Assembly: GCF_003334335.1 (NCBI RefSeq)
Contig: NZ_QOWQ01000017.1
Length of the DNA: 64,000 bases
Direction: 5' to 3' (one strand)
Origin: Escherichia coli
Lineage (GTDB): Bacteria > Pseudomonadota > Gammaproteobacteria > Enterobacterales > Enterobacteriaceae
The notes under the pieces are model-generated. The model was not told where the DNA came from. It made no database searches and saw nothing but the letters and a program-made list of their open reading frames with translations. Shown here piece after piece: positions 1-33,201 of the stretch (positions are counted from its first letter, which is position 1; each line of letters begins with the position of its first letter). The translations under genes were made by a program, and so were the position numbers.

Positions 1-269
1 CCCACCGGCGCGGGCGTTTTTGTCCGGTAACTGCTGTAGGTGCGGGAGAGGATGAACGGCAGCGGGCCGGGCAGGGCAAGGTCGGTTTCACCGGGAAGGA
101 CCTTTGCACCGAGCAGCGGATTGACCGGATGGCCGGACGTCACCCCGCCGGGGCACACCGAACAGGCCACGCCGGTGGGGGCACCGATGCGTACCCCGGC
201 TGAACCCTGGACAATGCTACCGCCATACTGCGTCATGTCGCCCTGACGCGCCGCCGGTTTTCCGCTCAT
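1..269 (-). CDS. rhsC: Rhs-family protein, 5' end only (gene continues beyond window start)
   Basis: Reverse-strand translation from ATG at 267-269 gives MSGKPAARQGDMTQYGGSIVQGSAGVRIGAPTGVA..., the conserved Rhs N-terminus; runs off the window edge. Confidence 0.8.
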   Translation of the reverse strand, partial: MSGKPAARQGDMTQYGGSIVQGSAGVRIGAPTGVACSVCPGGVTSGHPVNPLLGAKVLPGETDLALPGPLPFILSRTYSSYRTKTPAPV

Positions 270-460
270 CTGCTCATCCTTGTTTTATCGGGTTATTTGT
301 CTGCTTCCAGGCAAAACCCTACAGATTTATAAGAAAGCCTTAAGTGAGATATCTGTCAGATAAGAACAATTAGGAAAATATTTATATATATTTCATGAAT
401 ATATGTTTCGATTGGTATAACGATGTCTAAATATTCCTCTGAACATCTTCCTGATACAAA

Positions 461-489
461 AAACCGCCAGCGTTTCCGCTGGCGGTTTT
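461..489. terminator. GC hairpin with flanking A and T runs, bidirectional intrinsic terminator between ybfA and rhsC
   Basis: aaaccgccagcg-tttc-cgctggcggtttt inverted repeat directly 3' of ybfA. Confidence 0.55.
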
Positions 490-511
490 CAATGTATTCA
501 AAACTCAGCAA

Positions 512-718
512 TCAATAAAAATCACCAGTTGCCTTTTCGGCCTGATCCATCCACACCGGTTTATCGCTGGTTTTCGACCAGACGCGATGCAGGTAGCTGT
601 AAAAGCGGGCGCGGTCTTTCCAGAAAAGCATGAAAGGCAGCGCCAGAACGCCCGCTGCAACCGCATAAGTACGGCGTAAAAAGATAAGCCATGCAGGATA
701 TTCTCTGTAGAGTTCCAT
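512..718 (-). CDS. ybfA: DUF2517 small protein YbfA
   Basis: 68-aa [26 protein letters not shown]...; ATG at 716-718 confirmed on reverse strand. Confidence 0.8.
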
Positions 719-927
719 ACTTTTCTCCCCCTTTTGTATCTACCCGGTGAATGGCACCGGAAAAATGAATTTGTTTATCTGATGAAAATAGTACCGCCTT
801 TTGTGTAATTTTACTACTCATCCGACCACTTATTTTTGCTTATTGATGGTTTATTTACATTCATCCTGTAATTAAGTTACACAAAAGTTAAATTAATACT
901 AAACATTAGTTAAATCATGGCTTTTGC

Positions 928-957
928 CATTTTTATACTTTTTTTACACCCCGCCCG
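928..957 (+). promoter_or_regulatory. KdpE operator-like T-rich element of the kdpFABC promoter
   Basis: catttttatactttttttacaccccgcccg lies about 75 bp upstream of kdpF; matches my recollection of the KdpE-binding region of the kdp promoter. Confidence 0.5.
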
Positions 958-1030
958 CAGATTTTTGCGAAATCTTTGCAGCCAGAATTCTACCCTTCCG
1001 GTATCACTTTTAGGCCACTGGAGGTGCACT

Positions 1031-1120
1031 GTGAGTGCAGGCGTGATAACCGGCGTATTGCTGGTGTTTTTATTACTGGGTTATCTGGTTTATGCCCTGA
1101 TCAATGCGGAGGCGTTCTGA
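1031..1120 (+). CDS. kdpF: K+-transporting ATPase subunit F (29 aa, GTG start)
   Basis: GTG at 1031 preceded by gagg; encodes [29 protein letters not shown]; stop overlaps the kdpA start codon. Confidence 0.8.
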
Positions 1121-30330: not shown

Positions 30331-30428
30331 CCTGATGCGCTACGCTTATCAGGCCTACGCAGCTCCTGCAATATATTGAATTTTCATGCTTTTGTAGGCC
30401 GGATAAGGCGTTCACGCCGCATCCGGCA
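30331..30428. repeat. REP/BIME element
   Basis: gcctgatgcgctacgcttatcaggcctac ... gtaggccggataaggcgttcacgccgcatccggca. Confidence 0.75.
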
Positions 30429-32718: not shown

Positions 32719-32795
32719 GGCTACGTAGCTCAGTTGGTTAGAGCACATCACTCATAATGATGGGGTCACAGGTTCGAATCCCGTCGTAGCCACCA
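32719..32795 (+). tRNA. metT: tRNA-Met (elongator, CAU)
   Basis: 77-nt ggctacgtagctcagttggttagagcacatcactcataatgatggggtcacaggttcgaatcccgtcgtagccacca with encoded CCA. Confidence 0.95.
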
Positions 32796-32804
32796 TCTTT
32801 TTTT

Positions 32805-32889
32805 GCGGGAGTGGCGAAATTGGTAGACGCACCAGATTTAGGTTCTGGCGCCGCAAGGTGTGCGAGTTCAAGTCTCGCCTCCCGCACCA
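32805..32889 (+). tRNA. leuW: tRNA-Leu (UAG)
   Basis: 85-nt class II tRNA gcgggagtggcgaaattggtagacg...cgcctcccgcacca; anticodon loop tttaggt. Confidence 0.95.
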
Positions 32890-32912
32890 TTCACCAGAAA
32901 GCGTTGTACGGA

Positions 32913-32987
32913 TGGGGTATCGCCAAGCGGTAAGGCACCGGTTTTTGATACCGGCATTCCCTGGTTCGAATCCAGGTACCCCAGCCA
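32913..32987 (+). tRNA. glnU: tRNA-Gln (UUG)
   Basis: 75-nt tggggtatcgccaagcggtaagg...; anticodon loop ttttgat. Confidence 0.93.
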
Positions 32988-33002
32988 TCGAAGAAACAAT
33001 CT

Positions 33003-33079
33003 GGCTACGTAGCTCAGTTGGTTAGAGCACATCACTCATAATGATGGGGTCACAGGTTCGAATCCCGTCGTAGCCACCA
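33003..33079 (+). tRNA. metU: tRNA-Met (elongator, CAU), second copy
   Basis: Identical 77-nt sequence to the first Met tRNA. Confidence 0.95.
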
Positions 33080-33126
33080 AATTCTGAATGTGTCGAATAT
33101 GTTCGGCAAATTCAAAACCAATTTGT

Positions 33127-33201
33127 TGGGGTATCGCCAAGCGGTAAGGCACCGGATTCTGATTCCGGCATTCCGAGGTTCGAATCCTCGTACCCCAGCC
33201 A
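33127..33201 (+). tRNA. glnV: tRNA-Gln (CUG)
   Basis: 75-nt Gln tRNA; anticodon loop ttctgat. Confidence 0.93.

Follow-up and report, generated by a model that had tools for sequence, protein, structure and literature searches.

The 5' end of rhsC, a multicopy Escherichia coli Rhs polymorphic-toxin gene, at the edge of a 64-kb window

The stretch of Escherichia coli DNA analyzed here (64,000 nucleotides, hereafter the window) begins inside a minus-strand reading frame that continues across its left edge. An initial annotation regarded this frame as the 5' end of an Rhs gene encoding the conserved Rhs N-terminus, placed the body, the tip, and the immunity genes beyond the window, and saw potential novelty in the tip. 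This raises the questions of which rhs copy is cut at this edge, what its visible part encodes, and how the remainder of the gene is most probably built.

Identity and position of the reading frame at the window edge

Read on the minus strand, the first 269 nucleotides form an open frame of 89 codons plus 2 nt that runs without a stop across the left edge. Its translation (MSGKPAARQGDMTQYGGSIVQGSAGVRIGAPTGVACSVCPGGVTSGHPVNPLLGAKVLPGETDLALPGPLPFILSRTYSSYRTKTPAPV) starts with MSGKPAARQGDMTQYGG and ends with TKTPAPV at the edge. The features of the region are:

1..269, minus strand: rhsC coding sequence, codons 1-89 plus 2 nt, with the gene running past position 1 (translation, NF041261 match, identity to EC416 and K-12)
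3..128, minus strand: first 42 residues of the DUF6531 plug (Pfam DUF6531 on residues 46-83, model positions 1-37 of 74, E=8e-10)
129..269, minus strand: predicted released N-terminal fragment (NT), residues 1-47, ending at the inferred H47/P48 site between window positions 129 and 128
183..266, minus strand: single PAAR-like repeat, residues 2-29 (SGKPAARQGDMTQYGGSIVQGSAGVRIG), with the P-A-A-R signature (PDB, NCBIfam, and Pfam alignments)
267..287, minus strand: translation start region with TAA at 287-285, Shine-Dalgarno AAGGA at 281-277, and ATG at 269-267 (read from the sequence)
270..457, minus strand: AT-rich leader specific to the RhsC element (188 bp, about 35% GC; homology break and GC figures)
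455..492, minus strand: intrinsic terminator of ybfA, hairpin plus U-run, at the backbone/element boundary (RNA fold)
512..718, minus strand: ybfA (68 aa, DUF2517; in the ORF list and annotated in every matching record)
1031-1120: kdpF (ORF list and EC416 annotation)

The product matched the NCBIfam profile NF041261, 'RHS element core protein' (RHS_core), over profile positions 1-89 with E=5.5e-55; its score of 186.8 bits lies below the whole-protein cutoff of 2000 because only 89 of the 1261 model positions are present. A Pfam DUF6531 match (E=8e-10) falls within the same fragment. All 89 residues are identical to RhsC of strain EC416, whose colinear record has rhsC annotated at the same coordinates, and 88 of 89 are identical to K-12 RhsC, with I64L as the sole change. 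At the nucleotide level, 266 of 269 positions of the coding part agree with K-12, as do all but 3 of the 242 nt of the leader. The match to rhsC is far beyond chance, and, judged by its sequence, the fragment carries the clade-specific N-terminus of the E. coli rhsABCF subfamily, namely that of RhsC. The base composition shows the G+C-rich core beside A+T-rich flanks and tip that was described for rhsABCF elements (PMC2935791). The GC content is 67.7% in 1-269 versus 35.1% in the adjacent leader and 51.2% in the whole window, a contrast that is the known compositional signature of an Rhs core, and in EC416 the core has 61.6% GC and the tip together with ybfB 37%.

The list of open reading frames, which was made mechanically, also contains a plus-strand frame at 40-246 (68 aa, GTG start), which would be the true feature at 1-269 if rhsC were not real. 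We rejected this frame as an antisense shadow ORF in 68% GC DNA, as no matching record annotates a plus-strand gene there and the opposite minus-strand frame has the family match at E=5.5e-55, and we give this alternative practically no weight. Window 1-269 is the 5' end of rhsC, a multicopy E. coli Rhs ('rearrangement hotspot') polymorphic-toxin gene, so that the initial assignment to an Rhs 5' end was borne out, and the body, the tip, and the immunity genes indeed lie past position 1. We hold with high confidence that the best overall explanation is the 5' end of rhsC at its standard site, combined with the Rhs effector mechanism proposed below.

The assignment to rhsC, apart from rhsA, rhsB, and rhsD, follows from the neighbors ybfA and kdp. 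The window contains, in this order, the rhsC 5' end, ybfA, kdpFABCDE, and speF-potE, continuing to rlpA, and represents the K-12 region in reverse orientation, with rhsC, ybfA, and kdpFABCDE arranged as in K-12. The standard rhsC site lies between ybfA and ybgA. In 15 complete E. coli genomes, the annotated ybfA-rhsC junction matches the first 1 kb of the window at 100% identity, and 14 of these genomes have the gene annotated as rhsC. Counting matches of at least 80% coverage, this 1-kb segment occurs in 3687 of 5426 genomes. The homologues that were available for comparison are at least 79% identical. The gene has been known since the 1980s-90s and is found here at its standard site with a sequence that is nearly identical in thousands of genomes; the finding is already known, correct but ordinary, and has small weight as a discovery.

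Taken alone, the 269-bp rhs part is a multicopy repeat found at a median of 3 places per genome. As the window edge cuts this repeat, the toxin tip is not deducible from the window. Very many database proteins that share the N-terminus are 'partial' entries of 90-155 aa that are cut at contig ends, and, owing to the multicopy rhs core, short-read assemblies routinely break at this very point.

Upstream of the coding sequence, AAGGA lies 7 nt before the ATG, and the in-frame translation reads ITR(stop)NKDEQM, with the stop 5 codons before the ATG. The in-frame TAA at 287-285 therefore leaves no room for an earlier rhsC start or a longer N-terminus. Backbone homology with the rhsC-less strain ECO_2_R stops at window position 458, and hence 1-457, including the leader, is element-specific DNA. 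The ybfA terminator folds at -29.4 kcal/mol (z = -7.9; 0 of 200 shuffles were as stable), its hairpin is kept in ECO_2_R, and it is predicted to shield rhsC from ybfA read-through. A scan for consensus sigma-70 promoters in window 1-1100 gave 0 sites versus 1.8 expected. By eye, no convincing sigma-E promoter was seen in the leader, despite the in-vitro binding peak of RNAP-sigmaE that genomic SELEX lists for the K-12 ybfA>rhsC spacer (PMC5493296).

Between ybfA and ybgA lies a hot spot where other polymorphic-toxin material can take the place of rhsC. In ECO_2_R (L012:3800-5550), this site contains small hypothetical genes and a 'CDI system immunity protein', and its occupants include orphan immunity genes. 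In d1-58, which also lacks rhsC (L013:3800-7302), a DcrB-related (Eag-like) gene is followed by a different, frameshifted Rhs, so that an Eag-like-linked Rhs of another type occupies the rhsC site.

None of the complete E. coli genomes in the collection matches the window exactly. EC416 is the best match, with 3 SNPs in 25 kb, and is colinear over all 64 kb, the differences being 11 SNPs and a 221-bp deletion within a tRNA cluster. This cluster lies downstream of asnB (window 32719-33201) and comprises five tRNA genes (Met-CAT, Leu-TAG, Gln-TTG, Met-CAT, Gln-CTG) versus seven in EC416 and K-12, the deletion having taken one copy of each tandem tRNA-Gln pair. At least two complete genomes, ECCTRSRTH03 and CEA106S, have the five-tRNA form in one colinear piece, so that it probably arose by genuine recombination of the tandem duplicates with each other rather than through an error of assembly. 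Elsewhere in the window, Rfam detected the sRNA sroC in the gltI-gltJ spacer (41589-41751, plus strand, 174.8 bits) and, just above the gathering threshold, ES036/CssrF between nagD and asnB (30351-30393, minus strand, 41.1 bits). Between potE and pgm (12997-14440), the EC416 annotation gives a winged-helix fragment (pseudogene), an intact DUF2625 gene, and a lipoprotein gene.

The predicted N-terminal docking and cleavage module

All of the predicted module for VgrG docking and cleavage lies within the 89 residues that the window covers. The initial description as a conserved Rhs N-terminus was correct in this respect but incomplete, as the part in the window can be annotated more finely as a PAAR-like repeat, a predicted cleavage site, and the start of the plug. 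Residues 2-29 carry the P-A-A-R signature as P5-A6-A7-R8 and align with only the last of the three repeats of PAAR proteins (9RCE_c 71-98, 4JIV_D 67-93, 4JIW_D 67-92, and 8GRA_J 68-98). The profile matches point in the same direction: NCBIfam T6SS_PAAR_dom (NF033420) was matched at positions 68-94 of 94 with E=0.006 and 16.6 bits versus a cutoff of 124, and Pfam PAAR_motif (PF05488) with E=0.023. A complete three-repeat PAAR domain of about 90 aa was not found above threshold, only residues 2-29 being matched. Judged by these alignments, the RhsC N-terminus is a PAAR-like single repeat and not a PAAR domain. A longer or hidden PAAR domain was considered and rejected, as the in-frame stop lies 5 codons upstream of the ATG and the plug already begins at residue 46-48.

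The end of the NT is predicted from two relatives whose cleavage sites are known from experiment. Tse5 is cleaved between K47 and P48, and its NT, residues 1-47 (5 kDa), is PAAR-like and needed for secretion (PMC10684867). The RhsA protein of P. protegens is cleaved between H304 and P305 (PMC8765631). The solved Tse5 shell chain 8CP6_B begins with PVNPMLGSK, which aligns with P48-VNPLLGAK of RhsC. In the wider alignment, SGH/PVNPLLGAKVLPGE of RhsC corresponds to P48-VNPMLGSKLLPEE of Tse5 and to H/PVHAATGAKVL of RhsA, with STHPVH of RhsA opposite SGHPVN of RhsC. As far as the sequence tells, the window contains the conserved X/P-V-x cleavage motif at the start of the DUF6531 plug, and we infer from the Tse5 and RhsA sites that RhsC would cleave itself between H47 and P48. 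A comparison of residues 1-47 with the Tse5-NT gave no sequence similarity even at E<=10; the parallel between the two fragments is positional (47 residues, then PVNP) and not sequence-based. Docking of the RhsC NT onto VgrG is likewise suggested by analogy with the Tse5-NT.

In the Tse5 structure, the cocoon is plugged at its N-terminal end by DUF6531 (48-124) (PMC10684867; PMC9637101). The domain, of which the window contains the beginning, is complete in EC416 RhsC (residues 46-123, E=1.4e-17).

Body, tip, and immunity gene in the nearest genomes

As the window covers 89 of about 1397 codons, the body, the tip, the immunity gene, and the intactness of rhsC were read from proxies, namely EC416, PEC1009, ECCTRSRTH03, and CEA106S, which are the closest genomes over 14-25 kb of flank or share the rare five-tRNA arrangement. 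All four, as well as K-12, have an intact 4194-bp rhsC (1397 aa), followed downstream by ybfB, an N-terminally truncated orphan rhs fragment, ybfC, ISAs1/H-rpt remnants, ybgA, and phr. EC416 RhsC shows ten RHS_repeat matches with E<=0.001, representing the YD/RHS cocoon, and the best relatives of full-length proxy RhsC in the PDB are Rhs cocoons, with Tse5 (8CP6) at the top (E=9e-127). In EC416 and K-12, the core ends with DPIG...PISNIDPLGL at 1221-1247 (PISNIDPLGL at 1238), after which come a 150-aa tip with ETLKCIKPLHS as its first residues and then ybfB. The two proteins differ at 8 of 1397 residues, and their tips are identical.

That the fragment begins an rhs pseudogene which is truncated or disrupted and has no functional body or tip is very improbable. 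Such disruptions have some precedent: in TOK-001, the copy beside ybfA is annotated only as a 'DUF6531 domain-containing protein', strain 1008S19 has an IS1 in the rhsC/ybfB region, and many database entries are N-terminal partials, though most of these are cut at contig ends. However, no stop interrupts the 89 visible codons, which are the same as in intact genes, and rhsC is intact at 4194 bp in four of the four nearest proxies. The sequence comparison therefore favors a gene that is most probably intact in the source genome. A truncated fragment that lacks body and tip, which the initial annotation had named as the outcome that would speak against it, is not what the nearest genomes show, as all four combine the intact gene with a tip and immunity gene candidates.

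Another rival explanation leaves the source gene intact but has its core fused to the orphan (YbfO-type) tip, followed by ybfC, the K-12 tip and ybfB having been deleted by recombination between the cores of the main gene and the orphan. Exactly such fusions exist in two strains, as seen in the sequence of the rhsC locus:

A29, L007:8732-13497: natural core-orphan fusion
5735, L006:3041-7806: natural core-orphan fusion

Both encode a 1399-aa Rhs that shares its C-terminus with the EC416 orphan; ybfC comes directly after the gene, and both strains have lost ybfB. A29 is 100% identical to window 1-1100 and has a different tip, which again means that the tip is not deducible from the window. Moreover, about 3687 genomes have the junction versus 2536 with the K-12-type tip and ybfB. 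Against a fusion in the source genome, the four genomes nearest by flank (14-25 kb) or by the five-tRNA arrangement all have the unfused K-12 form, and the gene is annotated as rhsC in 14 of the 15 genomes that are identical over the first 1 kb. We therefore regard the fusion as quite improbable here, and the nearest neighbors favor the K-12-type tip form, which the source genome very likely carries. With this form, the gene most probably continues into the K-12-type tip with ybfB, followed by the orphan tip with ybfC, which can take the place of the resident tip through recombination between core and orphan. There is little hope of a novel tip: a K-12 RhsC tip, present with ybfB in 2536 genomes, or the known orphan YbfO tip is to be expected. 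That recombination between core and orphan yields an expressed fusion was shown experimentally in Salmonella (PMC3967940). Identical 5' ends with at least two different tips in the population mean that natural core-orphan tip switching occurs at the rhsC locus. The core/tip boundary of A29 and 5735 reads PVQYIDSMGL and not PxxxxDPxGL, so that the second DPxG of the aspartyl-protease motif is DSMG in these strains; the orphan-type tip then starts with ASKYGHLNNGG.

The K-12-type tip, RhsC-CT (EC416 residues 1248-1397; L001:11470-11919, minus strand), models as a permuted papain-like fold (YiiX/PLAAT/TseH/PPPDE-like). Two near-invariant sites of the tip, H30 (YHQY; H1277 of the full-length protein) and N117-C118 (KNCQDW; C118 being C1365), look like the H-box and the NC motif found in permuted papain-like hydrolases. 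This predicted assignment has moderate confidence and concerns the fold only. Searches of Pfam and NCBIfam with both alternative tips, YbfB, and YbfC gave no matches, and a literature search for the function of RhsC-CT or YbfB returned nothing relevant. The candidate immunity protein YbfB has 108 aa and three hydrophobic segments. Taking these points together, we tentatively propose, while leaning somewhat toward the contrary, that the K-12-type RhsC-CT may represent an unrecognized family of permuted papain-like Cys-His hydrolase toxins (LRAT/PLAAT/YiiX/TseH type). In this reading, YbfB would be a small membrane protein of three helices that neutralizes the toxin, and a minimal one-repeat PAAR-like peptide would attach the toxin to the spike. 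That the source genome carries a tip unseen in any proxy is less likely still than this papain-like reading.

In EC416, ybfB, the presumed immunity gene for the RhsC tip (L001:11140-11467), is annotated as frameshifted next to an intact rhsC. It is intact in PEC1009, ECCTRSRTH03, and CEA106S. The frameshift may reflect an error in sequencing or, alternatively, a toxin that is inactive against its own cell.

Proposed mechanism and comparison with known systems

If RhsC works like its structurally characterized relatives, residues 1-47 with their one PAAR-like repeat would, by analogy with the Tse5-NT, mount the protein on the VgrG spike of a T6SS. The chain would be autocleaved between H47 and P48 and would stay attached, as suggested by the K47/P48 site of Tse5 and the H304/P305 site of RhsA. 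From residue 48 to about residue 124, DUF6531 would plug one end of the YD-repeat cocoon that, according to the full-length proxies, encloses the C-terminal toxin. The aspartyl-protease motif (DPIG...DPLGL, 1221-1247) would then free the 150-aa tip, and the small downstream gene would provide immunity.

The EC416 annotation shows no T6SS or vgrG gene anywhere in the 64 kb that are colinear with the window, and the element thus shows no T6SS linkage within this distance. At the aspV (tRNA-Asp) locus of EC416 (L011:18234-25708), a T6SS remnant was found that consists of a C-terminal TssM/IcmF fragment, a VasL-domain gene, and Hcp genes. An N-terminally truncated RHS core protein abuts the TssM fragment there, and IS1414 and ISAs1 are nearby. 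As no T6SS or vgrG genes are close by and the closest proxy has only this remnant at aspV, RhsC in this lineage may be a structurally intact but poorly expressed or undeliverable effector, as in K-12.

The same observations bear on the alternative that the RhsC element is not a secreted weapon in this lineage but an intracellular toxin-antitoxin-like module, a recombination substrate, or a reservoir of immunity genes. The window is devoid of T6SS and vgrG genes, only a remnant of the T6SS is left at aspV in the best proxy, and the 269-bp 5' part is a repeat at a median of 3 places per genome. The frameshifted ybfB next to the intact rhsC of EC416 suggests little pressure from self-intoxication, and one paper (PMC7043789) reports Salmonella RHS elements as type II TA-like modules. 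On the other hand, the delivery architecture of PAAR-like repeat, cleavage site, and plug is fully conserved, and the ybfB frameshift may be a sequencing error. We consider this alternative unlikely.

Among the closest known systems is K-12 RhsC (b0700) with its element rhsC-ybfB-ybfO-ybfC-ybfQ/L/D, which occupies the same site by ybfA/kdpF and differs by I64L in the fragment; the proxies share its gene order.

Pseudomonas aeruginosa Tse5/RhsP1 (8CP6) is laid out like RhsC, with a 47-residue NT, cleavage just before PVNP, the DUF6531 plug, the YD cocoon, and an aspartyl protease of the DPxG...DPxG type that frees a tip of about 150 aa. The two differ at residue 47, which is K in Tse5 and H in RhsC, and in the P-A-A-R signature, which RhsC has and the Tse5-NT lacks (PMC9637101). 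Furthermore, Tse5 is a proven effector that adjoins its T6SS partners, whereas RhsC has no linked vgrG here, and the RhsC tip is unrelated to the pore-forming tip of Tse5.

Class I prePAAR proteins, a class reportedly defined by Ahmad and colleagues in 2020, carry a prePAAR motif ahead of transmembrane helices and of a full PAAR domain and are encoded beside a DUF1795/Eag chaperone gene; PMC8765631 restates part of this definition. P. protegens RhsA (7Q97) belongs to this class and shares the His/Pro cleavage site, the plug, and the cocoon with RhsC. It has about 300 residues before the cleavage site, comprising the prePAAR motif, transmembrane helices, and a full PAAR domain, and it needs an Eag chaperone. 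RhsC, in contrast, has 47 residues before the predicted site and no hydrophobic segment that could form a helix, and its upstream gene is not a chaperone gene but ybfA (DUF2517), which lies behind the terminator; RhsC is not a class I prePAAR protein by these features.

Canonical PAAR proteins such as V. cholerae VCA0105 (4JIV) have the P-A-A-R signature followed by the strand pattern GG..v.G...V.IG in common with RhsC. They possess three repeats (about 90 aa) that form a cone capping VgrG, whereas RhsC has one repeat that matches the last of these.

The rhs locus of Salmonella Typhimurium LT2 resembles the proxies in having a main rhs gene followed by an orphan tip with an immunity gene. LT2 rhs belongs to a different Rhs clade, has a different N-terminus, and is T6SS-linked in Salmonella. 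At the rhsC locus, A29 and 5735 are the natural E. coli equivalents of the Salmonella fusion between the main gene and the orphan.
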